The notes under the pieces: model-generated
What the model was told of the DNA's origin: nothing
Databases searched by the model: none
What the model saw: the letters and a program-made list of their open reading frames with translations, nothing else
Origin: Alphaproteobacteria bacterium
GTDB taxonomy: Bacteria > Pseudomonadota > Alphaproteobacteria > Rs-D84
DNA length: 64,000 nt
Assembly (NCBI GenBank): GCA_015062445.1
Contig: SUUQ01000005.1
Span: forward strand, 1,668 to 65,667
Direction of reading: 5' to 3'
Shown here: positions 858 through 51,496 of the stretch, piece after piece
How the letters are laid out: every line of letters starts with the position of its first letter
How positions within the stretch are numbered: the first letter of the stretch is position 1
Program-made: the position numbers and the translations under genes

Positions 858-875
858 ACAAATTGATTTTTTTTG

Positions 876-903: not shown

Positions 904-936
904 ACGTACCCCATAATTAATAACAAAGGCAATGTT

Positions 937-1170: not shown

Positions 1171-1251
1171 TATTATTCAATATATCGCCCTGTTTCGGGC
1201 GATATATTTGTTGAATAATGTTAATCATGAACGTAATAACAGGATGCAGAC

Positions 1252-1641: not shown

Positions 1642-1749
1642 TTTTTTAATTGCAATACAGATAAACACTTTGTTAAAGTAATAACCAGGACCAGGGTCCA
1701 GAAAGGAGAAAATCTACACGCCGTTTAATTGTCCTTTGCGGCGTGTTTT

Positions 1750-2244: not shown

Positions 2245-2347
2245 ATCAGATATTTATACAGATCTTCCACAGGAATAAAAACAATTGACCCGACATGGTG
2301 AATTCTTTACTCTGTTTCACGCACAAGGTAAAAAGGGGATTATTATC

Positions 2348-2983: not shown

Positions 2984-3040
2984 ATATTGAATTTTACATT
3001 TATTGGTCTATAGTGATTGCACACTAATAAAGGTAAAACG

Positions 3041-3673: not shown

Positions 3674-3707
3674 AAATCTGCCACCAAATTTGGTGGTTTT
3701 TTTTTAT
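3672..3707 (+). terminator. Rho-independent terminator
   Basis: Perfect palindrome 'ccaccaaatttggtgg' (3681-3696) followed by a T10 run. Confidence 0.7.
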
Positions 3708-3712
3708 TTGCA

Positions 3713-5656: not shown

Positions 5657-6048
5657 ATTGCCCCCCGTGCTAAGAATTAAAGAAAACCACCAAAAATTTG
5701 GTGGTCGGGAAGTTAGAAAAATCATAAACACGAATGACCCTGTGGCCTTTGGTAAAAACCTGTTGTATAGCCACAGCTTCCCGACACGCAATTGTCGGGA
5801 CAAAAACAACGGCACAAATGTGCCGACATTTTATGTCGGATTCAGTGCAATAAATCGCACTGCGTGTTTATGGGATTTTCTAAGTCCCGAATCCACATCC
5901 CTGCAGATTCAAAAAAATTATAGCACATTACCCCTTCAAACACAAGGTGAACCGATAAATATTAAAAAAGTGCCGATTTTTTTCTTGCAATTATGTGTAT
6001 CATGCCCCACAATCGTCTGGCCTTAAATTTTTATTAAAAGGAGAACTT

Positions 6049-15679: not shown

Positions 15680-15765
15680 TAAACAAACAAGACATGCGGC
15701 ATGCATGTTGTAACGTCACAGAAAGGTTGGATTTCCGATATTTTTCGGAATACAGGGAGAGTTTA

Positions 15766-17910
15766 ATGAAAAGTCAAAAAATTGCAGATTCTGTCAAGAA
15801 TGCGGTCAGTACAGTATTTTTACTGGCTGGTGCTTTTTTTGTATGTTCAACATTGTTATCTATGCGTTCTGTTTTGGCGGATCCGATTGCGCCGGTTGAT
15901 GCAAATATGTTGTTGGGCCCCCAGTCTGGGCGGCGGGATGCAGCAACGGCACGTGCGCCTGGTCGGACCAGTCCACGAAATTCAGTATCACGTACGACTG
16001 TTGCCCGTACGGCTGTGCCTGGTGGTGTTACAAATGTGGCGCCTGCGGCGGGTCGTGGTAATACTGTGACGTCACGTGCGGTTACATCTCGTGCTGCGAC
16101 AAATCGTGCTGATGCGGCGGCGGGGCGTGTAAATTCAAATGGTTCACGTAATGTTGTTTCACGTAAAAGTGCGGTGACGACCCGTGCCAACGCGGTTGCG
16201 AACCGCGCTGTACGTGCCCGTACTGCAACAACAGACATGGCAAGTAATGCCCGTATTTCCCTGCAGGGCAGTGCGATACGCGGTTCCAAGACATCGACCG
16301 GTTCGTCATATTCCTATTTGACAGGCAAATTATACACTGGCAATTACTCAAATATCATCGATTCAACAACAGGTTTGATTTCAACAGACGCATTTAATAA
16401 TTGTATGGAAAGTTATTATACATGTATGGATGAAATTTGTACTGCGCGAAATGCGGCCCAACGTCGTTGTGCCTGTGCAGGTCGTGTTCGCGACTTTGCC
16501 GAGGCGGAAACAGCCCTGGAAACCGCCAACGAAGAATTGATTAAGGTTTCAGGTGAATTGGCCCTGTTAATTGCGAACAAGGGTAAAGATGTATCCGAAG
16601 CGTTCCAATTAACCGATGCGGAAAAGGTTATGAACTGTGTTTCCTGGCAAGATGTAACGAAAAAATACGGCATGGATTCCAGCGAGGCAATAGATTGGTG
16701 CTATAACCATGGAATTTATGGCAGTGGCGGCGGTCGTGTGTCGTCCTGTGCCCAGCCATCATATTGTTCTGAATCTGGCAATGATTTTGGCTTTAACGTT
16801 TCCAGTTTGGATGGCAGTGGTTCGGACATATTGGCATCCTTACAGGCCTGGGCTGATGCCAAAGAGCAAACATTAACGATTATCACCGATAACACAGACA
16901 CATTGTTGTCTGCGTTTGATAACCTGTCATCGGTTGTCAGTGGCATGGCCGGGATTGGTGGTGCATTATCTGTATCAGATACCTTGTCAGACTCGCTGGC
17001 AGAAACATGGGGGTATGAATTGTTTGAATATGCCCACAACAACGTTTGTGCCCGCGTGCTGGATTCGTGCTTTAACGGTATATTTGAGGCCTGCGGTACC
17101 CCGCCATCTGGCACCAAGTGCAGCAATGGTGCGTCCCAGTGTCCATATAATTACAACAGTCACATAACTGTAAACAACACTGGTACATACGAATTGAACT
17201 TTGTTAATGCGTCCAGTGGTTACAGTGCATCAAATTCTGCAACATGCTTTGGTTATACATCTGCATCTGGCGATCCGTATTCCAGTCTGCGTGGTCCTGT
17301 TGCAGATGCGCGCCGCAGCATTATGCAAAAATATGCACTGGACGCGAACGCCGACTGTGATGCGTATGGCGAACAGTTGCGTGCCACCGCGCAAAACATT
17401 GGTTATCAAAAGGTTGCCGCCCAACAGGCGCTGCAACAAAAGCGTCTGGAATTTGCCCGCGAAGAATCTGATTCTATATTATCCGCGGCGATTCAGGCCG
17501 GTACAAACTTTAACGAATGTATCAGTGAAATTTATGACTGTTATGAAACACAGTTGACATCAAATCCATCATGGCCGGATGCGCGTATCAGAACATATTG
17601 TTCCCAGATTGCGAACGTTCCGCATTGCTATGAAGAAATGATTTGTAATCCATCGACATCCCAGTTCAAAGCCGTTATTGACCAAGCGGATTCGACAAAC
17701 TGTGATAACACCCAGGATTACACAACAAACACATGTCGCAATATTGTTACATTGAACGAAATCCTGAACGGAACAGGTGCTGGCAATATTGGTTCTGACT
17801 TTGACCCATACACCAGCAAGGATTCTGCCACCATCCGCGAAGACTGTTTGATTGACAGCGGGGTTGACAGTATCCGAAAATGGTTTGAAGAAAATCGTCA
17901 GAAACAATAA
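15766..17910 (+). CDS. Large secreted protein: disordered Arg/Thr/Ser/Ala-rich N-terminal region plus a Cys-rich C-terminal domain (paralog 1)
   Basis: Start at MKSQKI with RBS 'acagggagag' and a signal peptide. Low-complexity segment 'SRAVTSRAATNRADAAAGRV...'. More than 30 Cys in the C-terminal 500 aa. 'C..Y..CMD..C...........RC.C' is shared with the next gene. Confidence 0.75.
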   Translation: MKSQKIADSVKNAVSTVFLLAGAFFVCSTLLSMRSVLADPIAPVDANMLLGPQSGRRDAATARAPGRTSPRNSVSRTTVARTAVPGGVTNVAPAAGRGNTVTSRAVTSRAATNRADAAAGRVNSNGSRNVVSRKSAVTTRANAVANRAVRARTATTDMASNARISLQGSAIRGSKTSTGSSYSYLTGKLYTGNYSNIIDSTTGLISTDAFNNCMESYYTCMDEICTARNAAQRRCACAGRVRDFAEAETALETANEELIKVSGELALLIANKGKDVSEAFQLTDAEKVMNCVSWQDVTKKYGMDSSEAIDWCYNHGIYGSGGGRVSSCAQPSYCSESGNDFGFNVSSLDGSGSDILASLQAWADAKEQTLTIITDNTDTLLSAFDNLSSVVSGMAGIGGALSVSDTLSDSLAETWGYELFEYAHNNVCARVLDSCFNGIFEACGTPPSGTKCSNGASQCPYNYNSHITVNNTGTYELNFVNASSGYSASNSATCFGYTSASGDPYSSLRGPVADARRSIMQKYALDANADCDAYGEQLRATAQNIGYQKVAAQQALQQKRLEFAREESDSILSAAIQAGTNFNECISEIYDCYETQLTSNPSWPDARIRTYCSQIANVPHCYEEMICNPSTSQFKAVIDQADSTNCDNTQDYTTNTCRNIVTLNEILNGTGAGNIGSDFDPYTSKDSATIREDCLIDSGVDSIRKWFEENRQKQ

Positions 17911-17920
17911 GAATAAAAAA

Positions 17921-17948
17921 CCATCCCCCGATTGGGGGATTTTTTTAT
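17921..17948 (+). terminator. Rho-independent terminator
   Basis: Hairpin 'atcccccgattgggggat' followed by a T7 run. Confidence 0.75.
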
Positions 17949-17998
17949 GAAAACATTTTTAATCATCAATAAAATATGATATAATTACCCAAACGGAA

Positions 17999-20146
17999 AT
18001 GAGAAAGTTATTAACTTGTTTTATATCACTGCTGGTTGCGTCACCGTATGCGGTTGCGGCTGATTCTGCTGTGTCCCGTGCATTGCCTGGGGCGACTGTT
18101 GGCACGACAACACAATCCGGCACATCACGTGTGGCTACGCGTGGCACGATATCGCGCAGTATACCCACAAATTCATCTAATGCTAATACTGATAGTGCTG
18201 AGCCAACATCTTCAACCAGTCGCACTGGAAATATAACACGTGCGCTCAGTGCGAATACTGTATCTAATTCTGCCCGCAGCAGTTTAGACGACACTGTAAG
18301 TACCGTTGGTCGTAACAGTCGTGTATCGTCTGCCAGTATCAACAGTAATCCAGTTGTTCGGCGCGCAGGGTTGGTTTTGCGTCCCTCTACAGCCGAGGTT
18401 GGCGGCCGCGCCACCATTGACGAAACAGGAACACAAACCGGTTCCAACATGGACGAAGCCATCAGAAAAGTGTCATCACGTGCGGCTGCAACTGCCACCC
18501 GTGAATCGATTGCAGATGCCACGGCTCGCCTGGAACAGACGGCTGCACTGAACCAATCGTGCCAGCAACAGTATAATGATTGCATGGACCAGTTTTGTGC
18601 TGTTATTGATGCCAACCAGGGGCGCTGTTCTTGTTCTTCAAATTTGTCGCGGTACACACGTGTTGAATCTGCGGTCAAAGATGCCAATACCCAGTTGAAC
18701 GAAGTTGCCCAGCGTATTCGCTATGTTGGCCTGTCTGCGGATGAAATACGCGCCATCATGAACGAGACCGAAGCCGAACAGGCGCTAAGTGGTGCTGTCG
18801 ACACATCAACCAACCGCAACATGTTGGAAGAAATCGAAGATTTAATTCGTGATCCTGTCTCAAACACATCGTATTCGGCTGACACATATACCAGTCTGGA
18901 TTTAGACCTGGATTTTTCATCAGATGCATCGGATTTATTTAATCTGGACTTTTTATCCAGTGGCACCAGTGGCAGTTTTTCTAACCTGCGTGGCACAGAT
19001 TTGTACAACGCGGCCAAGCGGCGTTGTAATTCAATCTTGACCCGTTGCAAGGGGGCAGGTGCCACCGTACAGCAGATAACAGGTAATTATGACCTGGCGA
19101 TTGATAAAGACTGTATTGCATACGAACAGGGGTTGACCAAGATGAATGAAACCCTGGTGTCGAATGTCCGCAGTGCGAATTTAATGTTGCAAAAGGCACG
19201 CCTGGCGGTATTGCAGAACAAAAACCAATACGATGCCAAGGGGTGTGTTGCGGCGCTGGAAAACTGTATGAAGGATGATATGGTTTGTGGCGATGACTAT
19301 TTCAAGTGCGTTGACCCAACCAAAAAATATATCGATGAAAATGGCGAAGTTGTATTGGGGCAAAACATATCGAATATCACCGCATTTATGTCTGGGTACA
19401 ATAACGCAATGATATCAGAAGATGGATATTTGAAAAATGCATACAGTGTCCAAAAAATATCGGATGACTCATGCAAGGCGGCCCCCACGGGTGATAAGGT
19501 CAAGATGGGGGGGAATGACGGTTCTTGCATGGTAAAGTATTTGTTGCAAAAAATTGGAACTGGTCAAAAGGTCACAGACGAGGGGCTCTGTCGTGCTGTC
19601 CTGGACAAGTGTCAGCGTTACACATACGATGCCAATGGCAATTATATGCCATACAATGACATTGTTGAAAACTATGTCCAGCGTGCCATGGTGAACATCC
19701 GTGCGGCCCAGTACAATATAATCTCGGACTATGCATCCACATGCATGGTTGATATTGCCAACTGTTACAACCAGCAGGTGACCCAGGTAAACGCATGGTC
19801 ATCAAATGCCAGTGTGACAAACATATACAATGTTATGCGTGGTGCGTGTCGCAATGTTGCGCTGACCTGTGCCTATGCGGTATTTGCCGCTGATACAACA
19901 AGTTGTCCAGCCAACAATGCCGATAAATGCATCAACAGCATATCTGAAATGTTCTATCAGTCATTATTGTGTCCAGACAATTCGACCTATGTTGCAACTG
20001 CGGTGGGTGCAGAGAACGTTGGCAATGGCCGTGAATATGTCAACGTCAATTGCAAATGTAATAATGGCTACGAGGCCTGGGGTAATGCGTGTCTGTTAAA
20101 ATGTACGGACAATAAAACACGCAATGCCTATGGTACATGCGAATAG
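17999..20146 (+). CDS. Large secreted protein: disordered Ser/Thr/Arg-rich N-terminal region plus a Cys-rich C-terminal domain (paralog 2)
   Basis: Signal peptide 'MRKLLTCFISLLVASPYAVAAD'. Region 'QSCQQQYNDCMDQFCAVIDANQGRCSC' is collinear with 'NNCMESYYTCMDEICTARNAAQRRCAC' in paralog 1. Extended -10 'TGATATAAT' at 17977-17985. Confidence 0.75.
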   Translation: MRKLLTCFISLLVASPYAVAADSAVSRALPGATVGTTTQSGTSRVATRGTISRSIPTNSSNANTDSAEPTSSTSRTGNITRALSANTVSNSARSSLDDTVSTVGRNSRVSSASINSNPVVRRAGLVLRPSTAEVGGRATIDETGTQTGSNMDEAIRKVSSRAAATATRESIADATARLEQTAALNQSCQQQYNDCMDQFCAVIDANQGRCSCSSNLSRYTRVESAVKDANTQLNEVAQRIRYVGLSADEIRAIMNETEAEQALSGAVDTSTNRNMLEEIEDLIRDPVSNTSYSADTYTSLDLDLDFSSDASDLFNLDFLSSGTSGSFSNLRGTDLYNAAKRRCNSILTRCKGAGATVQQITGNYDLAIDKDCIAYEQGLTKMNETLVSNVRSANLMLQKARLAVLQNKNQYDAKGCVAALENCMKDDMVCGDDYFKCVDPTKKYIDENGEVVLGQNISNITAFMSGYNNAMISEDGYLKNAYSVQKISDDSCKAAPTGDKVKMGGNDGSCMVKYLLQKIGTGQKVTDEGLCRAVLDKCQRYTYDANGNYMPYNDIVENYVQRAMVNIRAAQYNIISDYASTCMVDIANCYNQQVTQVNAWSSNASVTNIYNVMRGACRNVALTCAYAVFAADTTSCPANNADKCINSISEMFYQSLLCPDNSTYVATAVGAENVGNGREYVNVNCKCNNGYEAWGNACLLKCTDNKTRNAYGTCE

Positions 20147-20151
20147 ACCTT

Positions 20152-20186
20152 AAAAAATCCCCACAAAAATGTGGGGGGTTTTATTT
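20152..20186. terminator. Bidirectional terminator between paralog 2 and dnaQ
   Basis: Hairpin 'ccccacaaaaatgtgggg' flanked by an A-run and a T-run. Confidence 0.7.
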
Positions 20187-20858
20187 GTTAATAATTTTCA
20201 TAAACTTTTCGTGATTTTCCAATTCATCTGGTTTTGGTTCAAACTTTCTGTATGGGAAATTTCCACCAACTTTTGGATGTGCCAGCATTGCCGCATGCTG
20301 TTTTGCGATAATGTCGTGAATATCTGGTGCGGGTTCTGTGTTTTCCAGTTCCAAATACACCTTGGCCAGAATTTCCGAGTCAATCAATGCCCCGTGTGCA
20401 TCTGCACGTGCCGTCAGTGAAATTCCATACCATTTTGCCAACGCATCCAGTGTATAACTTTTTGGCCCAAACACACGATTTCGTGCGATAACCAGTGTAT
20501 CCATCTGTTGTTCACGTGGAATTGTTTTCAGGTTCAGTCTTTGTAATTCCTGGTTAACAAATGGAAAGTCAAAGTCCAGTCCATTGTGTGCGACAATCGG
20601 GCTGTCCCCGATGTATTCCAAGAATCGTGGTGCGATTTCAGACATCTTTGGTTTATCTTCCAAAAATGCATTTGAAATTTTATGAACCATATATGTGTCA
20701 GGTGGGATAATTTTACCTTCTGGGTTAATGTATTCATGGAAAGAATTATCTGTAATTTTTCCGTCTAAAATTTCGACAGCCCCGATTTCGATAACACGGT
20801 CGCCGTGCATATAGTCAAAACCTGTTGTTTCAATGTCAAAGCAAATAACACGTTTCAT
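20181..20858 (-). CDS. dnaQ: DNA polymerase III epsilon subunit (3'-5' exonuclease)
   Basis: Exo I motif 'FDIETTGFD'; 'HNGLDFDFPFV'; Exo III 'HGALIDSEILAKVY'. Confidence 0.9.
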   Translation of the reverse strand: MKRVICFDIETTGFDYMHGDRVIEIGAVEILDGKITDNSFHEYINPEGKIIPPDTYMVHKISNAFLEDKPKMSEIAPRFLEYIGDSPIVAHNGLDFDFPFVNQELQRLNLKTIPREQQMDTLVIARNRVFGPKSYTLDALAKWYGISLTARADAHGALIDSEILAKVYLELENTEPAPDIHDIIAKQHAAMLAHPKVGGNFPYRKFEPKPDELENHEKFMKIINK

Positions 20859-20910
20859 TGTTAAAAATCCATTCCTTTATCATAAATGTTTGTGGTATTA
20901 TAATGAAACG

Positions 20911-23001
20911 ATGGACACAATGCTAGAAAATCTTAACAACGAACAGCGCCTGGCGGTTGAAACGACCGATGGTCCACTGTTGGTATTGTCTGGCGCCGGC
21001 ACGGGCAAGACACGTGTTCTAACAACTCGCATTGCATATATATTAAACAAACATCTGGCGATGCCGTGGCAGGTTTTATCCCTGACCTTTACGAACAAGG
21101 CCGCCCGTGAAATGCAGACTCGTCTGACAGATTTATCCGATGGCCTGTGGAATCCGCATGACATCTGGTGTGGTACGTTTCATTCAATGTGTCTGCGTAT
21201 ATTGCGTGCCAACGCACCATATGTTGGACTGAATCGTAACTTCATCATATATAACGAAGACGACCAAAAATCAGTCATAAAATCATTATTGTCAGAATCA
21301 ACGAAAAAGCCCGAAGACTATGTCGAAGAATTTTCACGTATCAAAGACAAGGGGCTGTCGGCATTGTCATATCACGACCGTATTTATGATGCCTATAACG
21401 CAGAATTGTTGCGTCTAAATGCGGTTGATTTTGGCGATATAATATTGCGTGTTTTGGAATTGTTTGAAAAAAATCCTGATATATTGTCCCGCTATCAAAA
21501 TCAGTTCAAATATATTCTGGTGGACGAATTTCAAGACACAAACAATGCCCAAATGGAATTTTTGCAGATGCTGACCCGTGGCCAAGACACACCAAATATT
21601 TGCTGTGTTGGTGATGATGACCAGTCTATTTATTCATGGCGTGGTGCCGAGATAAAACATATCTTGAATTTTGAAAAAACATTTCCCAATGCCCAGATAA
21701 TTCGTCTGGAAACAAACTATCGCAGTACATCGAATATCTTGAATGCCGCCAATTCATTAATTCGTCACAATCGTGGTCGCCTGGGCAAAGACCTGCGTTC
21801 TGTTCCCGGGGCCAACGGTGGTGCCGGTGAACCCGTGTATGTTTTGACATTGCCATCTGACCGGGACGAGGCACGCATAATCGCCGATGCGATTTCACGT
21901 GATGGCACCAATGATTTTACCCAGTATGTACTGTTAATTCGCAGCGGTGGTTTGTCCCGTGTATTCGAAGAAGAATTTGCCACCCGTGGCATACCATATC
22001 GTGTTATTGGTGCGACCAAGTTCTATGACCGTATGGAAATCCGTGATGTGATTGCATATCTGCGTTTATTGGTGTTTCCGTTTGACGATGTGTCTTTTCT
22101 GCGTGTGATTGGCAAGCCCCGTCGTGGTTTTGGCCCCCGTGCGATTGAAAATTTGCGTTCATCTGGCACACATTTAATGGGTGCATTGCGTACAGCCGCA
22201 TTGTCGCCCAAGATGCGTTCAGTTGCGGATGAATTTTTATCTGCATTTGATTTTCAGTGGCCATCTATGTCGCCACGTGATGCCGCCAATACATTGCTGG
22301 AACGCAGTGGTTATATGAACATGTGGGCCCAGTCTCGTGATTCTGATGCCCAGGACAGAATATCGAACATACGTGAATTGTTGTCATCTGTGATATCCAG
22401 GTATGATACATTGCCTGAATTCTTGGAACAGGCAGCCCTGATGATGACGGACGACGATGATACCAATGACACATCGCACAATAACAATAATGTTCGAATT
22501 ATGACAATCCACGCAGCCAAAGGGTTGGAATTTGATACGGTATTTTTACCCTGCTGGGAAGAGGGTATATTCCCCAACGACAAATCAATCGGTGACGGTT
22601 CGGTCGAAGAAGAACGTCGTCTGGCATATGTTGCAATAACCCGTGCAAGACATCGTTGCATAATATCGAATTCTATGTCACGTTTGATGTATGGTTCACG
22701 TCAGTATAATTCCCCCAGTCGCTTTATAACCGAAATGGACAATCGTTATTTGGATTTCCAGGGTGGTACCCCACGACCCATGTATTCGGATACGTATAAA
22801 ACTGTTCCACGTTCATATGATACGCAACGACGTCCTGCCCGAATAAAGTCTGCATCATACGTTGGCAAACTGGTATCGCATTCTGAATTGGGGGGCGGTG
22901 TTGTCATCGAAGACAATGGTTCGATATTAACAGTTGCATTCAAAACACGTGGCATTAAAAAGGTTGCCCGTGAATACATAACTGTTCTTGCCCAGGTATA
23001 A
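20911..23001 (+). CDS. uvrD: ATP-dependent DNA helicase, UvrD/Rep family
   Basis: Walker A 'SGAGTGKT', 'LTFTNKAAREM', 'VDEFQDTN' and 'TIHAAKGLEFD'. Start set at MDTMLEN to avoid overlap with dnaQ. Confidence 0.88.
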   Translation: MDTMLENLNNEQRLAVETTDGPLLVLSGAGTGKTRVLTTRIAYILNKHLAMPWQVLSLTFTNKAAREMQTRLTDLSDGLWNPHDIWCGTFHSMCLRILRANAPYVGLNRNFIIYNEDDQKSVIKSLLSESTKKPEDYVEEFSRIKDKGLSALSYHDRIYDAYNAELLRLNAVDFGDIILRVLELFEKNPDILSRYQNQFKYILVDEFQDTNNAQMEFLQMLTRGQDTPNICCVGDDDQSIYSWRGAEIKHILNFEKTFPNAQIIRLETNYRSTSNILNAANSLIRHNRGRLGKDLRSVPGANGGAGEPVYVLTLPSDRDEARIIADAISRDGTNDFTQYVLLIRSGGLSRVFEEEFATRGIPYRVIGATKFYDRMEIRDVIAYLRLLVFPFDDVSFLRVIGKPRRGFGPRAIENLRSSGTHLMGALRTAALSPKMRSVADEFLSAFDFQWPSMSPRDAANTLLERSGYMNMWAQSRDSDAQDRISNIRELLSSVISRYDTLPEFLEQAALMMTDDDDTNDTSHNNNNVRIMTIHAAKGLEFDTVFLPCWEEGIFPNDKSIGDGSVEEERRLAYVAITRARHRCIISNSMSRLMYGSRQYNSPSRFITEMDNRYLDFQGGTPRPMYSDTYKTVPRSYDTQRRPARIKSASYVGKLVSHSELGGGVVIEDNGSILTVAFKTRGIKKVAREYITVLAQV

Positions 23002-23030: not shown

Positions 23031-24332
23031 TTATTTTTTACCACCAGATTTTATAATATTGTACCATGTTTTTGTTGTTGCTTTGGTTTTATTCCACAGT
23101 GTTTTTACATCGCTTTTCAGCATGTCGCCCATTTTTGTGTCGATTGTCCCACCCAGTTCACTGGCGATTTTCATTGCATTCTTGGCCAGGTACATTGCGA
23201 TTGCAACAATCAACAGTGTGACAAAGAATCCAGGGTTATCAAACTGGGGGATTGTGTCAGTTGTTCCAAAATCAACAATGTATCCCAACAGTGCCACGCA
23301 AATTGCGATAACGATACTTAACACTATAAAGTGCAGGGCCGCATTAATAAACCGTGAAATTTGCGATTGCAGTGATTCTGGTTTAAATATTCCCATAAAT
23401 CCGTTAAAAATATCACCTGCGATACCCTTGTACGATGTTTTTCCGATTGTTTCTGCCAGTGCAGTAAATGGCAACATAATAATTCCCAAGAATAAATCTG
23501 CAATCACACCGAACGCAATAAACGCAAATCGCCAGCTTAGCATTATAAAGCATATAATCAGTGTTACACCGGCGGCGAATCCAAAAACACTGTTTCCGAC
23601 TGACATGCCAATCCATTTCCACCCCAGTGCCACCACGGTATAGCAAAACCCAGCCAATCTGGTTGGTACGCACATAATATTTGCAGCATGTTCTGCATCA
23701 ATCAGGTTTTCTGGCAACGTGTGATTTGCGGCATATTCATGAATTGCCCCGCATGTATCTGGCAGGTTAATTCCCGCCGTCTGTGTAATTGCATTCAGAA
23801 TTGTATCTGAAATGATTGTTCCCATTTGCAGTATTGGTGACATAACAAACATAAAAGTTTTTGCTGGTCCAATCATCAGAATGCCTGTCCAGACTGCGAC
23901 CATAACACCCCTTTTTACGATTTCCTTGATTTTGTCTTCTGGTTTACTTTGACCTGTGATGATTGTGTATGCTTCGAACCCAATCCAGAACCCGTATGCA
24001 ATGATAATAAACAGTATCACAAAGCGCACCAGTGAAGTGTCCAGCACATGTGCTACAAATGAAAACGCATTCATAAATGCCAGTCCAATTTTTGCTTCGA
24101 CGGGGACAAAGTCTGCCACGATTTGTTTTTGTGCATTGTCTTGGAAGTATTGCACATCATTGCCCAGTGTTTCTACAAATCGCTGGTGATTATTTTCTGT
24201 TGCCCATGTGCCGTATTCGCCAACATCTGCCATCGGCAGGTTTGATTCTGCACAGACCCCTGGCGACATCAGACAGATTGCCATCGCAATGACAGGCACG
24301 ATTTTTGATAAAAAATTTTTTATCACATTCAT
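23031..24332 (-). CDS. Polytopic membrane protein, member A of a 5-gene paralog array (VirB6/TrbL-like?)
   Basis: Signal peptide, at least 6 TM segments, Cys pairs in loops, and a Lys-rich C-tail 'KTLWNKTKATTKTWYNIIKSGGKK'. Its start overlaps the stop of the upstream gene. Confidence 0.6.
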   Translation of the reverse strand: MNVIKNFLSKIVPVIAMAICLMSPGVCAESNLPMADVGEYGTWATENNHQRFVETLGNDVQYFQDNAQKQIVADFVPVEAKIGLAFMNAFSFVAHVLDTSLVRFVILFIIIAYGFWIGFEAYTIITGQSKPEDKIKEIVKRGVMVAVWTGILMIGPAKTFMFVMSPILQMGTIISDTILNAITQTAGINLPDTCGAIHEYAANHTLPENLIDAEHAANIMCVPTRLAGFCYTVVALGWKWIGMSVGNSVFGFAAGVTLIICFIMLSWRFAFIAFGVIADLFLGIIMLPFTALAETIGKTSYKGIAGDIFNGFMGIFKPESLQSQISRFINAALHFIVLSIVIAICVALLGYIVDFGTTDTIPQFDNPGFFVTLLIVAIAMYLAKNAMKIASELGGTIDTKMGDMLKSDVKTLWNKTKATTKTWYNIIKSGGKK

Positions 24333-25819
24333 TACTTTTTACCCATTGCCTTGGAAATTTTTTCTGTTATTTGCACAGGTACATGCCATATTTTTTGTCC
24401 CAGGTCATGTATCCATGCACCAAAGTCAAACTGTTCACCTGTCGCGACATTTGCATTTTCGCCTGGTATCGGCAGTTTCACACCGCCCGCCGGCAACAGT
24501 TTATCGATTTTCGGACTGATTGCATAATAGTACAAACAGAACAGGCACACCATCATCAGCAAGAAATTCCATCCGTCTTTCATAAAATCGAATGCCCCCG
24601 GGTATTTTCTTTCTACTTCGGCCCGCCGTGCTGTAAAGCAGTTTTTGAATGCATCTTTATCCATTTCACCATTTGCCAGTGCGACCTGTTCACAGGTTTT
24701 GAAAACATTCATGACACTTAACGTTTGTGCATCTGGATTTTCTGGAACCTGGCCCATCATTGGGGGCAGTATTGCGCTGTAGCCGTCATTTGGACCTGGC
24801 ATAAATGTGTCTGCAGTATATGATACAGTTGCGTATATGACCAGTACTTTCAATGTGATTGCCACGATTCTTACTGCAGACGATATCAGCATCTCTAATG
24901 CCTTGCTGACCAGTCCGCTGGCCTTGGCCCAGGTTCCTTCAAATGCACTTGCCGCCAGCAGCAGTGGCATAAAAATGATTAAGAAAATTAACTTGAACAC
25001 CACAGACAATATTTGAAAGAATAAATCAAATCCGATAATCATGAACATTATCACCAATACCAATCCTGCAATCCATGTGAATGCGCCCCCGCCCATCCCC
25101 ATCCATGCATAGTTCATCATTGCAAAACCACCTGCGGCCCCGGCCAGCATAACAGAGTTTATATTTCCCATCACGCACATAAAAGGGTTCATAACCGGGT
25201 TCAGTATATCTGACGATTCTGTATTATGACCTGATGCCAACGCATTGCATTGTGCCGCATCTGTCACCCCAGTTGCCGCCATTGACAGTTCGGCCCCGAC
25301 ATACAGCACGGGCGTGATGGTGATTTGTGAAACGGTCTTCAGTGCATCTGTGCCGCCCATTCCCAGCGCCCCCATCAGAACACCAACAAATATGATTCTG
25401 ATGCCTTGCTTCCATATTTTTTCGAACCATGGGTGGAATTCAATTTTATGTTCCTTAGGTTCCAGTGTTGCTGTCTGCTTTGCGTGATTAAATATGTATT
25501 GTACGGTGTGTATAAAGATAAAAATACCGAACCCGATAACCATCAAAATCCACAGGTTGTCCACCATCAACGTCCAGAATTTTTCTGTTGCGCTGCCCAG
25601 TACACCGAATAAATCTGCGATATATCGACACAGGAAACATCCGTTTGCCGTTGCAATGTCGCCATTTTCAACACCTGCTGCGACCAAGAAATTATCCATG
25701 CTGGTATATGTTATTGCTGCCCCACCAATTGACGAAGATACATACCAAATCCCCAGCCCCAGTGCAACCAGTCCCATAACTATTCTGACAGCGATTAAGA
25801 TTAATTGTGCTTTTAACAT
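24332..25819 (-). CDS. Polytopic membrane protein, member B of the array
   Basis: About 10 TM segments. Shares the 'P(L/F)xxLxxxxFxGxW' TM motif ('PLLLAASAFEGTW') and a Lys-rich tail with its paralogs. Coupled TAATG-type overlaps on both sides. Confidence 0.6.
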   Translation of the reverse strand: MLKAQLILIAVRIVMGLVALGLGIWYVSSSIGGAAITYTSMDNFLVAAGVENGDIATANGCFLCRYIADLFGVLGSATEKFWTLMVDNLWILMVIGFGIFIFIHTVQYIFNHAKQTATLEPKEHKIEFHPWFEKIWKQGIRIIFVGVLMGALGMGGTDALKTVSQITITPVLYVGAELSMAATGVTDAAQCNALASGHNTESSDILNPVMNPFMCVMGNINSVMLAGAAGGFAMMNYAWMGMGGGAFTWIAGLVLVIMFMIIGFDLFFQILSVVFKLIFLIIFMPLLLAASAFEGTWAKASGLVSKALEMLISSAVRIVAITLKVLVIYATVSYTADTFMPGPNDGYSAILPPMMGQVPENPDAQTLSVMNVFKTCEQVALANGEMDKDAFKNCFTARRAEVERKYPGAFDFMKDGWNFLLMMVCLFCLYYYAISPKIDKLLPAGGVKLPIPGENANVATGEQFDFGAWIHDLGQKIWHVPVQITEKISKAMGKK

Positions 25820-27009
25820 TATTTGCTGTCCTTTTTATCGCCACCTGACACGATTGTTTTTCCAATTTTAACAGTTGTGTCGACCGCATCTTTGACCAGT
25901 GTTATCATGTCGTTTGCCAGTTGTTCACCCATATCTTTTTTCTCGGACACATCAAATGCCGCCAGAATCATTTTTGTGATTTGTGGAATTTGTCCTTGGA
26001 TATAGTTTAGCACATATACCAACACAATCGCACTCATAAACGTCATTGCCTGCAGGTTTTCTGTATTCAAATCCGCTTCGAATATTTGTCCTGTGGTAAT
26101 TGCGTTCATCAAGTCGGCTGCCGACGCATCTGGCGCAGAAAAGAATTTTGCGATAATGACCATAATGACTGTGTATGTCAGTACCACTGACCCCAACGTG
26201 ACAATTGCATTAATCAGATTTTTAATTTGATTAACACCGACCCCTGACCCCAGTTTTCCAATCCATTCTGGCACATGTTCTGCGCCTTTGAATGCGAATG
26301 TCACCAGCGAGATTGGAAAGAAAAACGCAAAGAAAGCCATCGCCACAATTGCATCTGCGAAATAGCAACAATATCTAAAGAACAGCTTAAAGAATCCCCA
26401 TGCTAAATACAGTCCGATAAAGAACAAAATAATATGTTTAATCAAACTACCTGGTCCCAACAGTGCCTGCCATGAAAATGCCTGGTCCATCATTGCGATT
26501 CCCAGTTTTATGTATGCCTGGAATTGTGTGATTGTTTTTTTCATCAACAGTATAATTTTGTCCCGCAGTTGTGGTCTGAAAAAACCATCTTCGGTCATTT
26601 TTTCTGGTTGGTATGTTACTTTTTCTTCGACCGCATCTGTGTCCATTTGTGTGATTGTCTGGGTGTATGTCAATGTGATTTGTGCAACTGGCTCAAACGT
26701 AATAGTTGTTAAAATCCGTGGCAGCATAACCCCCATCCCCATCAGCGCAATTGCGACAATGCCATTTATAAAAACTTTTTGAATTGATTTTTCATACAGT
26801 GTATCTGCGAAATCATTTTGGAAATTTTTCCAAATTGCATTAACCATGAATACTGCAAACAGCATCACAAACAGTACAACACAAATTTGGCTGAATGTGC
26901 CGTATATTTCTGCAGCTGCAACAGATATGATTTGAAACAGTCTGTCAAACACCCCACAGCCCCAACACTGCACTGCATTTTCCACCAAAGATGATGCGAA
27001 ATTATTCAT
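25819..27009 (-). CDS. Polytopic membrane protein, member C of the array
   Basis: Multi-TM; 'PISLVTFAFKGAEHVPEW' motif; Lys/Asp tail 'GGDKKDSK'. Overlaps its neighbours by 1 nt. Confidence 0.6.
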   Translation of the reverse strand: MNNFASSLVENAVQCWGCGVFDRLFQIISVAAAEIYGTFSQICVVLFVMLFAVFMVNAIWKNFQNDFADTLYEKSIQKVFINGIVAIALMGMGVMLPRILTTITFEPVAQITLTYTQTITQMDTDAVEEKVTYQPEKMTEDGFFRPQLRDKIILLMKKTITQFQAYIKLGIAMMDQAFSWQALLGPGSLIKHIILFFIGLYLAWGFFKLFFRYCCYFADAIVAMAFFAFFFPISLVTFAFKGAEHVPEWIGKLGSGVGVNQIKNLINAIVTLGSVVLTYTVIMVIIAKFFSAPDASAADLMNAITTGQIFEADLNTENLQAMTFMSAIVLVYVLNYIQGQIPQITKMILAAFDVSEKKDMGEQLANDMITLVKDAVDTTVKIGKTIVSGGDKKDSK

Positions 27010-28274
27010 TATTTTTTAATCCATCCTGCGGCGGTTCCGATTGCTTTTCCTGTTTTTTTGATGTTTCCCCAAATTGTGCCTGCGTCAGATTTTACACTGT
27101 TGTACAGTCCATCCATTCCGCCGCCGATATATTTCTTTAATTGTTCTTGTGTCTTGTCATAAATTTTGAACATCAAATACAGTGTTAATATTGCCGACAT
27201 CCATATCAAAGAATGTTGTCCAAAACCTGCGCCAGAATTTGCGATTTGTGGAACATTGCTGGCTGCACTGCCACCTGCGGCGACGACAAAAGTTGATACA
27301 TTTTCCATAAACAGTGCCCGTATAACTGCCAGATTTATACACAGCATAAATGCACACGCAATCATTGTCACGATTAATTGTTGCAGTGCCTTGGTAATGC
27401 CGCTGAATGCGGGCCAAACATCGAACCATTTATCACTGGGTTTTACAACATATGTCAGTACATAGAATGGATACAGAATTAATTGCATCCCGAAATTAAA
27501 TATCCCCTGGATAATCAGCAGTGCCATAAACAGATTGCTGCTGACGAATGTCAGTATTAAGATAATTCCTGTCACGATATTCATAAAATCTTGTCCGCCG
27601 TGCGGTATCAGTGTCATCAAACCTTTCAGTCCCTGGGTCAGACTATCAAATCCCCGCTTGATAATTTGATTGTTTGCATGTGACAGTTCTGATACGGGCT
27701 GTACCAGAAATTCACACGATTCCTGTGAAATCCAATCGTGTGCCAGAATGTCCGGTGGGCACTCAACTTTTGGTGGCTGTGCACCTGCTGCGTTAATTTG
27801 TTCTGTGATGTGACTGGTGTAAATCGCCCCCAGTTCCAAGAATGGATTAACCAACCACTGTGTTAAAAACACTGGTTTCATCTGCAACAAAAACAGTGCG
27901 GCAATAATTGCCCGCCCGCCTGATTTTAATGTGTTTTCGACAATCTGTGTCCCGGTAATTTTTCCATCGTAAATTTCGCCGCCCCCTGATATTCCCAGAA
28001 ATGACAGCCACTGTTTTGGAAAGTACATTTTTACCAGCGAAATCGTAATTGTAATCCCCAAGAATATCCAAACAAACGCATAGATAAAACCATTGCCGTT
28101 TCCGACAAAGAAATCATAAATTCCGGTTGCTACCAACATCATCGCATCCAGTACCATTGGAACGAACGGCGCCAGGTTCAGTGAATCGATGATATTTCCT
28201 GCATATGCCAAATCTGGGCACAGCATTGCCACCGCCAAACACAACCCAAAAAAAACTTTTTTCAGTAAATACAT
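27009..28274 (-). CDS. Polytopic membrane protein, member D (first gene of the 4-gene operon)
   Basis: Signal peptide 'MYLLKKVFFGLCLAVAMLCPDLAYA'; 'PFYVLTYVVKPSDKWFDVW' motif; tail 'KKTGKAIGTAAGWIKK'. Confidence 0.6.
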   Translation of the reverse strand: MYLLKKVFFGLCLAVAMLCPDLAYAGNIIDSLNLAPFVPMVLDAMMLVATGIYDFFVGNGNGFIYAFVWIFLGITITISLVKMYFPKQWLSFLGISGGGEIYDGKITGTQIVENTLKSGGRAIIAALFLLQMKPVFLTQWLVNPFLELGAIYTSHITEQINAAGAQPPKVECPPDILAHDWISQESCEFLVQPVSELSHANNQIIKRGFDSLTQGLKGLMTLIPHGGQDFMNIVTGIILILTFVSSNLFMALLIIQGIFNFGMQLILYPFYVLTYVVKPSDKWFDVWPAFSGITKALQQLIVTMIACAFMLCINLAVIRALFMENVSTFVVAAGGSAASNVPQIANSGAGFGQHSLIWMSAILTLYLMFKIYDKTQEQLKKYIGGGMDGLYNSVKSDAGTIWGNIKKTGKAIGTAAGWIKK

Positions 28275-28342
28275 TCTCTGTTTTTATTTTTATCTTTTCA
28301 ATTATATCACATTTTGTGCAAAATATGATATACTTAAAAACG

Positions 28343-29632
28343 ATGAACCGATTAAAAAAATTTTGGATTGTATTTTTATCGTTCTTGCCATGGGCGGCGG
28401 GTGCGGCTGTTCCGTTATTGGTTGGCGGCATTGCAGGTGTCGGGGTTTTGGCGGGATTTTCGATATATCGCACAGCGGTTCCGGTCAGTCCAACAGATGC
28501 GTATCAGTTTTTTTCCAGTTGTTGGACATGCCAAATGTTTTCTGACATCATGGCAACAATGTCTGGTATATTGCCCCGCATTTATCATGCCTTGGGTGAA
28601 ACGATTGTTCCGTTCACAATAATGTTAACGGCGATATGGCTGGCCTGGAAATTGGTCAGCAATTTGATGAACGGGAAAATGGAAGATGGTTGGTCATTGA
28701 CCAGTACATTTGTGAATCACATGGTGCGACTGGGGATTGTTTGCATATTTTTATTGGCACCCCTGCCACGGTTGATATCAGATGTTGCGATTACACCGAT
28801 TTTCAATATTGGCATGTCGCTAAATCGTGTGGTTGTACATGACGATAATTTTGACATGTGTGTTATATCTACTGCGTTGGCAGATCCTGTGTCTGTTGAT
28901 TCGGCTGCGGCGGATTCTGGTGCATTTTCACCGACCATGCGTCATAATCTGGCATGTGAATTGGCGGGCATTCATCAAATGACAGGTATGGGCATGACAG
29001 TTGGCTGGACGATGCTGAATATGGCATTTGATGCAGATTATATGCACAAGATTTTATGGGATGTTCCTATTTTTCCAAACATCATATTGTTTTTTTCGGG
29101 TTTATTGATAATGGTGCTGTTTTTTGCGGCATTGCTGCCCATACCGATATACTTTTTAGAAATTTTTATCACATTATCACTGGATTTGGTAATGTTGCCG
29201 TTTATGTTGTTGGCATGGTTGTTTCAGGGCTGGCAGATATCTTTGGCGGGTGCGGGCAAAACGATTCGTGGGATTATTGACGATGTAATAAATGCGACCT
29301 TTGCGTTGGCGATAACAGGTGTGTTTGTCACGTTTGCGATAATGTTCCTGGATGCGATATTTGGCGATTGGAATGGGGTATCTGTTTTATCGACTGCCTT
29401 AACTCAAAACGATTCGAAATTTATGATGGATGCCTTGATGATGCGCAATGACAGTTTGGTAACCATTATATTGATGGGTATATTTATTGCGATGTTTATG
29501 ATAATGATACCTGCATTATCCAAGACCTTGTTCAACGTACAAATGTCGACCCGATTCTATGACACGACCAAAAAGAACATTGAAATTGTATGGGAAAACC
29601 TGAAAAAGTGGTACTCCGCAATAAAAAAATAA
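28343..29632 (+). CDS. Polytopic membrane protein, member E (divergently transcribed paralog)
   Basis: Start chosen at MNRLKKFW (signal peptide). The track ORF 28205.. overlaps member D. 'PFMLLAWLFQGW' motif; tail 'ENLKKWYSAIKK'. Confidence 0.6.
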   Translation: MNRLKKFWIVFLSFLPWAAGAAVPLLVGGIAGVGVLAGFSIYRTAVPVSPTDAYQFFSSCWTCQMFSDIMATMSGILPRIYHALGETIVPFTIMLTAIWLAWKLVSNLMNGKMEDGWSLTSTFVNHMVRLGIVCIFLLAPLPRLISDVAITPIFNIGMSLNRVVVHDDNFDMCVISTALADPVSVDSAAADSGAFSPTMRHNLACELAGIHQMTGMGMTVGWTMLNMAFDADYMHKILWDVPIFPNIILFFSGLLIMVLFFAALLPIPIYFLEIFITLSLDLVMLPFMLLAWLFQGWQISLAGAGKTIRGIIDDVINATFALAITGVFVTFAIMFLDAIFGDWNGVSVLSTALTQNDSKFMMDALMMRNDSLVTIILMGIFIAMFMIMIPALSKTLFNVQMSTRFYDTTKKNIEIVWENLKKWYSAIKK

Positions 29633-29700: not shown

Positions 29701-30210
29701 ATGACAAAGTTTCCGATTCTTTATTGGCCTCGCCGTACGACTGGTGACAATGAATACCAGTTGGCACGCAAAGTGATAAACAACACGACTGGTGTTATGC
29801 CGGACGTATTGACCGAAGATGTCAATATTGCGGTATTTTTACAGGACAATCCTGGTGCGGTTATATATTATCCTGTATTTTGTGGTTCGACGGGGTGGTG
29901 GGGTGAATTATTGGGTGGTGATGCGGTTGTGTGTGACAAACTGATAATATCGCCAGAATGCCAGTTAATGGTTATCGAGCCGGGTAAAACGGCCCGTCCA
30001 CGTGGCACGACCCAGTTATTAGCAGCAGAGATTTATCCAACCAGTGGCTTTTTCAAAAAGATGAACTCTGGCATTGCAACGGTTGCAGATATGCTGGCAA
30101 CGGATGCGGGCACGATATTGGCGCTGTTTTCTGGTCGCAACCAGGGGCAGTTTATAAATATTTTGGAATCGACTGGCAATTCGTATTTGGGATGCATTGG
30201 TCGTTATTAA
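29701..30210 (+). CDS. Hypothetical protein (169 aa)
   Basis: ORF with a TATAAT box at 29687-29692 just upstream (possibly a leaderless transcript). No recognisable family. Confidence 0.4.
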   Translation: MTKFPILYWPRRTTGDNEYQLARKVINNTTGVMPDVLTEDVNIAVFLQDNPGAVIYYPVFCGSTGWWGELLGGDAVVCDKLIISPECQLMVIEPGKTARPRGTTQLLAAEIYPTSGFFKKMNSGIATVADMLATDAGTILALFSGRNQGQFINILESTGNSYLGCIGRY

Positions 30211-31230: not shown

Positions 31231-31258
31231 TTCCCCCAAATGGGGGGATTTTTTTTGT
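31231..31258 (+). terminator. Rho-independent terminator
   Basis: Hairpin 'cccccaaatggggg' followed by a T8 run. Confidence 0.75.
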
Positions 31259-31326
31259 TGATATATTTTTCTGCTTGCGTGCGATTCGTGATTTGTTCTA
31301 TGATTGCATCAGGAAGGAAAGGAATT

Positions 31327-32640
31327 ATGCGTCATTTAACATTCAGTATATTGGCTGTACTGTTGATTGTGCCTGGTATTGCATCGGCACGAATGCCGGT
31401 TGTAAATGTATCATCTGGTGGTGTGTCTGCACGTTCTGCATTTGGCGAAGATGTCAGTGCATCTGTATCTGGCGGTACATTGCCATCTGTTGCGTCGCCG
31501 TCGGTATCGACACGTACACGTTCGGTTGTTTCACGTCCTGTGACTGCATCGGTTGCACCGGCCAGGACCGTGGACCGTGGGGAACAGTTTGTTGCATCGA
31601 ATGATGTTTTGGTTCCTCGCCGCCCCAGCAACGATTTATGGGCGAAAAGCGATGGTGCCTTGCGTATGCCCAGCCCCAGTGAATTTTCTGTTATTCGTTC
31701 TGACGGTGTTTTGCCCGAAGAAAGCTTAGATAACGCATATGTTGCGTCTGTTTCGGCACGTCCGGCTGCGCCTGTTGCATCGATTTCTGAGTCTGTGTCG
31801 GAACTGGATAATCAAATTGCACGTTTGATTGAGTTGCAAAAGCATGCCAATGATAATGCACGTTCTGTATCGCCCCGTGTTGCGCCTGTGGCACCGGCGA
31901 TGCCGGCTGCACCTGTTGTTGCAGCTGTGGAACCTGCTGTGCCGGCTGTGGTTGATTTGCCTGCGTCGCCCCGTGTTGCAGATTCTGATGTATCGCTGCG
32001 TCGATTGGTTGTTCCGATGTCAGATGATGTTGTTGTTCGCAGTGTTGAAAAAAATATTTCGCCACGTATTGCTGCGGTTCGTGATGATATGACCAAGATG
32101 AGTCCTGCAGAACTTCGTCGTGCATTCAGAAAGACGTTTTTATCAGAAAACAAACATCTGTCCACATATTCGATTGATGATGGCTTTGATGTTGCCAGTG
32201 ATATGTCTGCATCTATCGAAGGTTTTACAGCCCGTCGTGATTTGTCTGAAACTGGTGGCATTCGTCCGTTGGAAATCAAGATTAAATTTCGCAACGAAGA
32301 TTCTGCATTATCACGTGAAAACTATAATTTGTTAACTGAATATGCCGGCATTGTGGTCAGCAAACCAACCCGTGCCATCCAGGTTGCCATCCCCCAGGTA
32401 ATGACCACTAACAAGGATGCTCGCAAATTGGCGGCCCGCCGCCTGGCGATTGTTGAACAGGTTTTAACCGACAACGGTGTGTCCCAGCAGCGAATTGTGC
32501 CGGTTTTATCCAGTCGTGACGAACAGGGATTTGTATTGCGTATAATCTCTGGTGATCAGTATGAAACCCTGACCCAGCAACAACGTGATATATTTGGTGA
32601 TACGATTAATAAAAAGACCTATAAAAGTATGTCGTGGTAA
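31327..32640 (+). CDS. OmpA-family protein with a long Pro/Ala/Val-rich linker
   Basis: Signal peptide 'MRHLTFSILAVLLIVPGIASA'; PAV-rich repeats; the C-terminal 'ARKLAARRLAIVEQVLTDNGVSQQRI' resembles the OmpA_C peptidoglycan-binding motif. RBS 'ggaaggaaagg'. Confidence 0.55.
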   Translation: MRHLTFSILAVLLIVPGIASARMPVVNVSSGGVSARSAFGEDVSASVSGGTLPSVASPSVSTRTRSVVSRPVTASVAPARTVDRGEQFVASNDVLVPRRPSNDLWAKSDGALRMPSPSEFSVIRSDGVLPEESLDNAYVASVSARPAAPVASISESVSELDNQIARLIELQKHANDNARSVSPRVAPVAPAMPAAPVVAAVEPAVPAVVDLPASPRVADSDVSLRRLVVPMSDDVVVRSVEKNISPRIAAVRDDMTKMSPAELRRAFRKTFLSENKHLSTYSIDDGFDVASDMSASIEGFTARRDLSETGGIRPLEIKIKFRNEDSALSRENYNLLTEYAGIVVSKPTRAIQVAIPQVMTTNKDARKLAARRLAIVEQVLTDNGVSQQRIVPVLSSRDEQGFVLRIISGDQYETLTQQQRDIFGDTINKKTYKSMSW

Positions 32641-45506: not shown

Positions 45507-46445
45507 GTGAGGGCTCTTTTTTACAGTGCAATTTTTTCGATTTTATGCACACCGTGTTTTGCAGACGTATTGCCATTGGATGATGCGTTGCGTTCCACAT
45601 ATCGTGCGTGTGTTGGTATTGACGACCAGTTAAACGATTTGCGTCGCATGGCGGGCATCAACACTGCGATAACTGCGGCTGGTACTGCGGCAGGGGCTGG
45701 TGCGACTGTGGTTGGTATTGTTAAAACGTCCAAGGATAAAAAGGCAGAATCGCTAGAGGCCATATTAAATGAAATCAAAGAAATGACACAAAATTCTGCC
45801 CCGATGACCACAGATGAAATTGACAGATTTATGTTTGAATTTAATGCGTACTATGAAACTGCGCTGAAAAGCACTGATTCCATACAATCAGAACTGGACA
45901 AGACGGTTGCCCAGTCTAAAAAGTTGGGTAATTGGCGAACAGGTTTACTGGCGGGCGGCACAGCCACCAACATTGCCGGTGCGGTTATTGCCAGTTCGAA
46001 CAAGGTTGACGGTGATATTTTTGTTCAAATAGAGCTGTGTAAAACATCTGTTGCGAATTTGCGCAACTCGATTATCCAGGCCCGTCTGAACGGCCAAGAC
46101 ATAACCGAGGCCGAGGAAATCATCCGTTTATGTGGCGAATATGATTATGCAGATTTGTCGAAAATTAATACCAAGGCCCGTGGTGCGACAATTTCGTCTG
46201 CGATTGGTGCGACCACTGGTGCGGTTGGTACGGTACTGTCGGCCAGTGCGAATTCCCAGAAAGTGCGTGACGATAATACAGACACGGGCAAACATCGTGA
46301 AAAGAATCTGAACACGGCATCGAATATAATGGCGGGTGCGACGACTGCGGCCTCTGCGACGGCGACCATATTTAATGCGACCCAAATTGGTGCGATACGT
46401 CGTGTATCAGACATTGCAGAAAAATGCACGGAGGTATTGAAATGA
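45507..46445 (+). CDS. Secreted helical Ala/Gly/Thr-rich protein (312 aa)
   Basis: Signal peptide 'MRALFYSAIFSILCTPCFA'. Repeated 'AGTAAGAGATVVGIV'-type segments. Its stop overlaps the next start (ATGA). Confidence 0.6.
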   Translation: MRALFYSAIFSILCTPCFADVLPLDDALRSTYRACVGIDDQLNDLRRMAGINTAITAAGTAAGAGATVVGIVKTSKDKKAESLEAILNEIKEMTQNSAPMTTDEIDRFMFEFNAYYETALKSTDSIQSELDKTVAQSKKLGNWRTGLLAGGTATNIAGAVIASSNKVDGDIFVQIELCKTSVANLRNSIIQARLNGQDITEAEEIIRLCGEYDYADLSKINTKARGATISSAIGATTGAVGTVLSASANSQKVRDDNTDTGKHREKNLNTASNIMAGATTAASATATIFNATQIGAIRRVSDIAEKCTEVLK

Positions 46446-51492: not shown

Positions 51493-51496
51493 GAAA

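Follow-up and report, generated by a model that had tools for sequence, protein, structure and literature searches.

The 64-kb stretch of DNA analyzed here, which is referred to as the window and provides the frame for the coordinates below, contains five genes, A to E, that encode membrane proteins of 396-495 amino acids (aa) and very probably specify compact, highly divergent members of the VirB6/TrbL superfamily of type IV secretion system (T4SS) components. Four of these genes are located consecutively on the minus strand: gene D (27009-28274, 421 aa) is the first of four translationally coupled genes and is followed by gene C (25819-27009, 396 aa), gene B (24332-25819, 495 aa) and gene A (23031-24332, 433 aa), the last gene of the operon. 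At the D/C, C/B and B/A junctions the start codon overlaps the preceding stop codon by one base within the sequence TAATG (positions 27009, 25819 and 24332), as had been described in a first-pass annotation of the window, in which all junctions and coordinates of the four genes proved to be real. Beyond the 3' end of gene A lies uvrD; at its other end the operon faces the divergently transcribed gene E (28343-29632, plus strand) across an AT-rich intergenic spacer (28275-28342), which had been placed correctly and measures 68 bp (79% A+T) rather than 70 bp. The spacer is presumed to be a shared promoter region; this role is deduced from its position only, because matches to promoter consensus sequences at the locus, like those to terminator consensus sequences, were no more frequent than in shuffled sequence. 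The coordinates of gene E likewise held, and its product comprises 429 aa instead of 430 aa, or 435 aa when translation starts at an alternative in-frame ATG six codons upstream, at position 28325. The upstream ATG was used to call the database protein P0001, a 'hypothetical protein' of an Alphaproteobacteria metagenome-assembled genome (MAG) that is identical to E, and an equivalent ATG was found in only 33 of 77 orthologous loci.

For each family, 74-80 full-length orthologues were recovered from 80 loci, the best of 227 stretches encoding a relative of E that were found in a scan of species-representative genomes. Invariant periplasmic cysteine pairs are located at C194/C221 of A, C191/C215 of B, C172/C187 of D and C173/C205 of E, with a second invariant pair in B (C376/C394); the first-pass annotation had attributed such a pair to all five proteins, and it is missing from C. 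Additionally, an invariant N-proximal CxxC motif that was absent from that annotation is common to B (C61/C64), C (C15/C18) and E (C60/C63). Proteins A and D are devoid of CxxC and start with a signal-peptide-like N-terminus. Judged by these sequence features, two subtypes emerge, the CxxC subtype B/C/E and the A/D subtype with signal-peptide-like N-termini. The earlier assignment of a signal peptide or an N-terminal transmembrane segment to each protein is in agreement with A and D and fails for C, which has no N-terminal hydrophobic segment and in which the first hydrophobic segment comprises residues 42-60. In a simple hydropathy scan, the strongly hydrophobic segments that do not overlap numbered about 4-6 per protein and not up to 10, in place of the 6-10 transmembrane helices assumed previously, whereas the Lys-rich C-terminal tail of all five proteins was confirmed. 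In the motif first noted as 'P...F.G.W', the proline is invariant in all five proteins (P288 in A, P285 in B, P232 in C, P269 in D and P286 in E), and the tryptophan is conserved in B, C, D and E and not in A. The invariant motif of C spans P232...W249 and the motif of E spans P286...W297, and that of D reads 'YPFxVL..V.K...KW' with P269.

Common descent and relationship to VirB6/TrbL

Direct sequence similarity among the five proteins is weak, with pairwise BLAST identities of 20-24% and best E-values of 1e-13 for C-E, 4e-6 for A-D and 1e-4 for A-B. Their designation as paralogs was followed up by an all-against-all comparison, in which the family profiles, each comprising the 74-80 orthologues of one gene, were compared pairwise by hhalign. 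Colinear alignments were obtained for five profile pairs, namely C-E (97.3%, 354 columns), A-D (94.6%, 294 columns), A-B (88%, 116 columns), A-E (88%, 167 columns) and B-C (81%, 267 columns); the profile pairs B-D and C-D gave no direct alignment. Each family was additionally compared with a superfamily alignment of 95 distant superfamily domains, and every family aligned nearly end to end and colinearly: A with 99.7% (E 8e-26, 320 columns), B with 99.5% (E 3e-23), C with 100% (E 5e-54), D with 99.3% (E 1e-20, 333 columns) and E with 100% (E 7e-51). These near end-to-end matches establish the common descent of A to E, and the designation as paralogs thus stands at the profile level. By these profile comparisons the five proteins belong to one superfamily, and the split among them is ancient.

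The Pfam family PF04610 (TrbL/VirB6; gathering score 25.9 bits) was searched with all five proteins and gave no direct match, even at E <= 1, whereas distant homologues of the array proteins pass its gathering score. When the E profile was compared with 1.84 billion representative proteins, 174 relatives were obtained, many of which are 400-1500 aa in length. Among the 73 distant E relatives scanned, 29 matched PF04610 with a best E-value of 1.2e-8, and nine carried a Peptidase_M23 domain. The distant homologues P0197 and P0223 scored 34.5 and 27.8 bits on PF04610, both above the gathering score. P0197 was detected by the E profile at E 1.4e-8 in the search of 1.8 billion proteins, and the region of P0197 that is matched by TrbL is also covered by the E and B profiles, while P0223 is matched over its TrbL-matched region by all five profiles. 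The profiles of A, B, C and D reach the same TrbL-related set as that of E, which is the member with the clearest TrbL/VirB6 link. A homologue search with a multi-domain alignment returned only the alignment's own first sequence and one with another alignment returned 14 proteins, and neither yielded informative names. A tblastn search of E against 72,556 plasmids was empty, and on this ground the family is not regarded as a plasmid conjugation gene.

The relationship to VirB6 was also approached at the level of structure. A phmmer search with E against the PDB sequences found nothing, and the superfamily profile gave as its top match among them TrwI, the VirB6 protein of plasmid R388, at a non-significant E-value of 2.8; in this match the conserved stretch 'LPL...W.F..T', a Pro-containing hydrophobic motif, was aligned onto TrwI GLGPLFILALIWQPT. 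An AlphaFold2 model of E that was calculated from a shallow alignment of 17 orthologues reached a pLDDT of only 40.7 and was discarded, and a 53-sequence alignment including distant homologues was needed to obtain a model with a pLDDT of 77.5 and a pTM of 0.72. In a Foldseek comparison of the latter model, TrwI chains were matched with a probability of 1.00 and TM-scores of 0.54-0.57, whereas transporter structures reached TM-scores of about 0.1. Like TrwI, the modelled protein would be built from some seven bundled helices that are long and for the most part hydrophobic, and a VirB6 fold is predicted for E.

A further connection may be provided by the motif around the invariant proline. The signature loop of VirB6 proteins has been described as P-x7-F-x2-T-x6-W (PMC10732058). 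Its canonical first part, P-x7-F-x2-T, is present in 50 of 95 distant homologues and is kept by B alone among the five proteins of the array (PLLLAASAFEGT, residue 285). The proline and a hydrophobic residue at position +8 are kept by all five, along with a nearby tryptophan in B, C, D and E. The motif of the array proteins is probably a decayed version of this signature loop. The transitive homology, the motif alignment to TrwI and the shared superfamily thus support the VirB6/TrbL-like reading that the first-pass annotation had put forward, and the alternative offered there, an undescribed family of membrane proteins, is contradicted by the homology to VirB6. The superfamily to which the five belong represents a distant branch of TrbL/VirB6, and the VirB6-like region covers nearly the whole length of the array proteins.

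Conservation, neighbourhood and related arrays

The 80 loci originate from Candidatus Enterousia and gut Alphaproteobacteria of ruminants, horses, birds and humans. Enterousia is placed by the GTDB in the uncultured order Rs-D84, the genomes of which are smaller than about 1 Mb and lack biosynthetic pathways; standard transporters for sugars, amino acids and peptides are missing as well, and Enterousia has been proposed to be an obligate symbiont or parasite that obtains metabolites from other cells (PMC12306168). In all 80 loci the gene block A-B-C-D(-)/E(+)-h169-IMPase is present in intact, colinear form, and the uvrD/dnaQ pair, the genes of two Cys-rich proteins of 715 and 738 aa and the h466/comF genes change place among them. 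The ratio of nonsynonymous to synonymous substitution rates (dN/dS) is 0.07-0.10 for each of the five array genes in comparison with the closest genomes, and the neighbouring IMPase gene falls into the same range. Relative to the loci L001 and L002, the values are 0.07-0.09 for D and 0.08-0.10 for A, and they rise to 0.22 for A in comparison with more distant genomes; A is also the most divergent of the five proteins between species (42-82% identity). These data clearly indicate that the five genes are under strong purifying selection and represent working genes, not relics. The notion of a degenerate T4SS module, which had also been considered in the first-pass annotation, is contradicted by the dN/dS values together with the intact open reading frames (ORFs) and the 74-80 full-length orthologues per family.

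The gene content of the window is that of a housekeeping region of the chromosome, with identified products including PBP1a, MraY, FtsW, MurG, DnaQ, UvrD, an IMPase-like protein, ComF and LeuRS as well as GyrA, AcrB/TolC, pyruvate kinase, RecR and YidC. No virB3 or virB4 gene adjoins the array, as had been noted before, the flanks consisting of uvrD and housekeeping genes. Directly downstream of gene E is located h169 (29701-30210, plus strand), which encodes a non-membrane protein of 169 aa that adjoins E in 78 of the 80 loci. With 71-88% identity and a dN/dS of 0.04-0.08, its conservation exceeds that of the five membrane proteins; it yielded no Pfam or NCBIfam match, and no homologue was found beside the arrays of other lineages. 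The h169 protein is a co-conserved neighbour and possibly an accessory component. The h466 gene (31240-32640, plus strand) encodes a secreted protein with an OmpA-like C-terminal domain and is located about 6 kb further from the array in many Enterousia genomes.

Related arrays were inspected at eight loci (L081-L083, L085 and L087-L090) with up to 10 kb on each side. In L083, derived from an unrelated Alphaproteobacteria MAG (JAFGXE01, 39% G+C), five overlapping genes on one strand (664-8216 of that locus) encode proteins of 432, 625, 582, 465 and 413 aa, the second of which is extended at its N-terminus by an additional domain of about 240 aa. By profile comparison these proteins are of the types E, A/D, C, B and A/D, which corresponds to the order E|D-C-B-A of the window. 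Accordingly, the two layouts differ by an inversion, either of E or of D-C-B-A, and the five types are older than the split between at least two lineages of Alphaproteobacteria. An unrelated contig with 30% G+C, L082, carries five tandem TrbL-like genes followed by the gene of a 493-aa protein (17448-18929 of that locus) with a faint OmpA match in Pfam. The C-terminal 130 aa of h466 are 35% identical to this protein (E 2e-19), and both proteins end with ...M(S/N)W. The h466 protein is thus a possible peptidoglycan-anchoring partner of the array, although the link is weak. A widespread type of chromosomal cluster from human gut and other metagenomes is represented by L085 (2337-12777), L088 (2989-13879), L089 (1931-11879) and L090 (3587-14143). 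It comprises, in this order, the genes of a lipoprotein (144 aa), a 283-aa protein and a transmembrane protein of 57-71 aa, three to four TrbL-like genes and a gene for a double helix-turn-helix regulator, the last TrbL-like product (1292-1497 aa) being fused to Peptidase_M23.

Additional observations were made on other genes of the window. The Cys-rich proteins of 738 and 715 aa (15694-17910 and 17999-20146, both plus strand) are paralogous secreted proteins with about 30% identity to each other; they have signal peptides, Ser/Thr-rich linkers and many cysteines, gave no Pfam or NCBIfam match, and may be surface or adhesin proteins. The dnaQ-like exonuclease gene (20181-20858, minus strand) and the longest uvrD ORF (20833-23001, plus strand) overlap head to head by 26 nt, and the true start of uvrD is probably a downstream ATG (MDTMLENL...). 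Two overlapping ORFs of 312 and 1046 aa (45507-46445 and 46424-49564, plus strand) showed no match to Pfam or NCBIfam. The region 50161-55150 (plus strand) contains a TolC-like OEP gene, a 195-aa ORF without family match and the gene of an AcrB-family RND pump, so that a TolC/AcrB efflux system is kept in a genome of less than 1 Mb that is otherwise devoid of standard transporters.

Candidate function and alternative explanations

The VirB6 protein TrwI of R388 is a pentamer in which each subunit places two helices in the inner membrane, and which supports the pentamer of VirB5 together with the site of pilus assembly (PMC9259494), and DotA of Legionella forms an equivalent pentameric protochannel (PMC12857230). 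The array may encode a counterpart of this platform, the 'stalk base' or protochannel of the T4SS, distributed over five anciently diverged VirB6/TrbL paralogues. The five products would be made in near-equal amounts and would co-assemble into one VirB6-type ring with five-fold symmetry, most simply with one copy of each. The ring would then be the core, in inner membrane and periplasm, of an envelope apparatus derived from a T4SS, which could serve contact-dependent exchange with another cell in a bacterium that depends on a host or partner, has a genome of less than 1 Mb and is devoid of ordinary nutrient transporters. The remaining T4SS parts, VirB4 and others, would either be dispersed over the rest of the genome, like those of the rvh system of Rickettsiales, or be absent. 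A single five-fold platform is suggested because there are five paralogues, four of them are coupled, the set and its order are fixed across lineages, and a pentamer is known for TrwI and DotA. We consider the chances about even that the array specifies a pentameric platform of the VirB6 type, perhaps as a heteropentamer with one copy of each paralogue (1:1:1:1:1), as the core of a T4SS-derived envelope apparatus.

TrwI/VirB6 (PDB 7O3V, 8RT9 and 8RTD) is the closest structural relative of the array proteins. Its identity to them is about 12-15%, and it is a single protein of 342 aa, whereas the array comprises five distinct paralogues that are longer, contain the N-proximal CxxC (in B, C and E) as well as periplasmic cysteine pairs in addition, and are encoded without adjacent virB2-B5 or virB7-B11 genes. 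DotA of the Dot/Icm system (PDB 9NGY, solved with IcmX) is far larger, with a solved chain of 857 residues; it is the product of a single gene and belongs to a type IVB secretion system of about 27 components, and sequence similarity to the array was not detected. Several copies of a VirB6 homologue are also present in the Trw locus of Bartonella, owing to the tandem amplification of trwL and trwJ-I-H. These trwI copies are recent and highly similar, and they were amplified along with the genes of VirB5 and VirB7 in a locus that encodes a complete T4SS, whereas the five proteins of the array are ancient, with about 20% identity, and stand alone.

A number of observations speak against the platform interpretation. 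No Pfam or NCBIfam match at all, and hence none to PF04610, was obtained for A to E even at E <= 1, and the strict signature P-x7-F-x2-T-x6-W is present in none of the five. Only E was modelled, and the model leans on an alignment with homologues of 15-21% identity. The case for a heteropentamer consists of the coincidence of five paralogues with five-fold symmetry, the coupling of the genes and their co-conservation. Five members are not universal, since related arrays elsewhere have two, four or five, and four VirB6 paralogues are given for Anaplasmataceae in a reference cited in PMC12857230. Moreover, no Pfam-detectable VirB4, VirB8-11 or VirD4 was found in the 40 large ORFs of the window, nor among 120 non-window clusters of proteins from the 80 loci. 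A Walker-A search likewise revealed no unexplained P-loop protein in the window or in these clusters. The earlier statement that the 64 kb contain no secretion ATPase, VirB8-11 or VirD4 was thereby upheld at the level of Pfam and of the Walker-A motif.

In gene organization the array is closest to the rvh system. A rival explanation, which we regard as possible and clearly less probable than the platform, is that the array is the VirB6 expansion of a complete but scattered P-type T4SS of the rvh kind, with virB3/4, virB8-11 and virD4 elsewhere on the chromosome of about 0.9 Mb. The paralogues would then be the building blocks of VirB6 assemblies, either alternative or mixed, in a conventional machine for the secretion of effectors; this explanation agrees on the identity of the proteins and would imply nothing new. 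Consistent with it, the array proteins are VirB6 homologues, the genomes are reduced, the organism is presumably partner-dependent, and the submitters of a few of the related MAGs labelled them 'Rickettsiales bacterium'. Both systems consist of tandem VirB6 paralogues, up to five in the case of RvhB6a-e, on a reduced alphaproteobacterial chromosome. The rvh genes are not organized in a single operon and occur in scattered clusters with three to five rvhB6 copies (PMC10732058), a range that includes the four tandem genes and one divergent gene of the array. The RvhB6 proteins are, however, 'extended' by large flanking insertions, whereas the array proteins remain compact. The rvhB6 array is located directly after rvhB3-rvhB4, whereas the array of the window includes one inverted member and is flanked by uvrD and other housekeeping genes that vary between species, VirB3/VirB4 not adjoining. 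A Pfam-detectable VirB4, VirB8-11 or VirD4 was found beside none of the arrays of L082, L083, L085 and L088-L090, and a T4SS ATPase was found in none of the eight related array loci, of which up to 10 kb on each side were covered. The host belongs to the order Rs-D84 and not to Rickettsiales, and a T4SS does not appear in a metabolic reconstruction of that order, which refers only to 'hypothetical membrane-bound proteins'; this is a weak negative (PMC12306168). The comparison with the VirB6 expansion of Rickettsiales that was drawn in the first-pass annotation is apt as an analogy.

More doubtful is the explanation of the array as a stand-alone channel derived from VirB6 and devoid of VirB4, in which the five proteins, perhaps together with h169, h466 and the Cys-rich proteins, would form an ATPase-independent envelope conduit or membrane-remodelling platform, in which the T4SS protochannel would have been co-opted for uptake or exchange. 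Orphan chromosomal arrays without a detectable T4SS gene recur in several uncultured lineages, no P-loop candidate was present in the window or its variable flanks, an OmpA-like partner is encoded beside the arrays of two lineages, and Rs-D84 is devoid of standard transporters (PMC12306168). On the other hand, the directly examined sequence corresponds to about 7% of the genome, and an absence from the neighbourhood is not an absence from the genome. All T4SSs described to date include VirB4, and no VirB6 protein is known to work alone. In its furthest form, which appears to us similarly unlikely, Rs-D84/Enterousia and several further uncultured lineages with orphan arrays would be without any VirB4-type ATPase, and the five paralogues would form an obligate heteropentameric, ATPase-independent conduit through the envelope; these transporter-poor bacteria with genomes of less than 1 Mb would depend on it as a novel derivative of the T4SS for exchange or uptake.

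That the five are solute transporters or unrelated polytopic proteins that resemble one another by hydrophobic composition only, as the low pairwise BLAST identities, the B-D and C-D profiles that do not align directly and the lack of Pfam matches might suggest, is essentially refuted by the colinear, near full-length superfamily-profile alignments (99.3-100%), which rule out similarity of composition alone, by the motif proline invariant in all five, by the absence of ABC, MFS or other transporter matches in Pfam and NCBIfam, and by the low TM-scores of transporter structures against the E model.

Implications for T4SS biology and reduced-genome bacteria

VirB6 is the least understood conserved subunit of the T4SS; its role as a pentameric stalk base was seen only in 2022, and the reason why some bacteria with reduced genomes keep several VirB6 paralogues is unexplained. 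What is new here is a compact VirB6 array of five types that is invisible to Pfam, occupies an orphan chromosomal context and occurs in a widespread gut lineage with reduced genomes. Since the number of paralogues equals the symmetry of the ring, four of the genes are coupled and their order recurs in a second lineage, the proposal that the paralogues correspond to positions in one heteropentamer is testable, and it may bear on the five RvhB6 proteins of Rickettsia. PF04610 is blind to this family, and a hidden Markov model built from the array sequences would improve the annotation of T4SS in metagenomes. Should the genomes prove to be devoid of VirB4, the array would represent the first T4SS derivative based on VirB6 only, which would be highly interesting. 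For Enterousia, a gut lineage devoid of standard transporters, the assignment offers a first clue to the function of about 6.6 kb of genes for 'hypothetical membrane proteins'.

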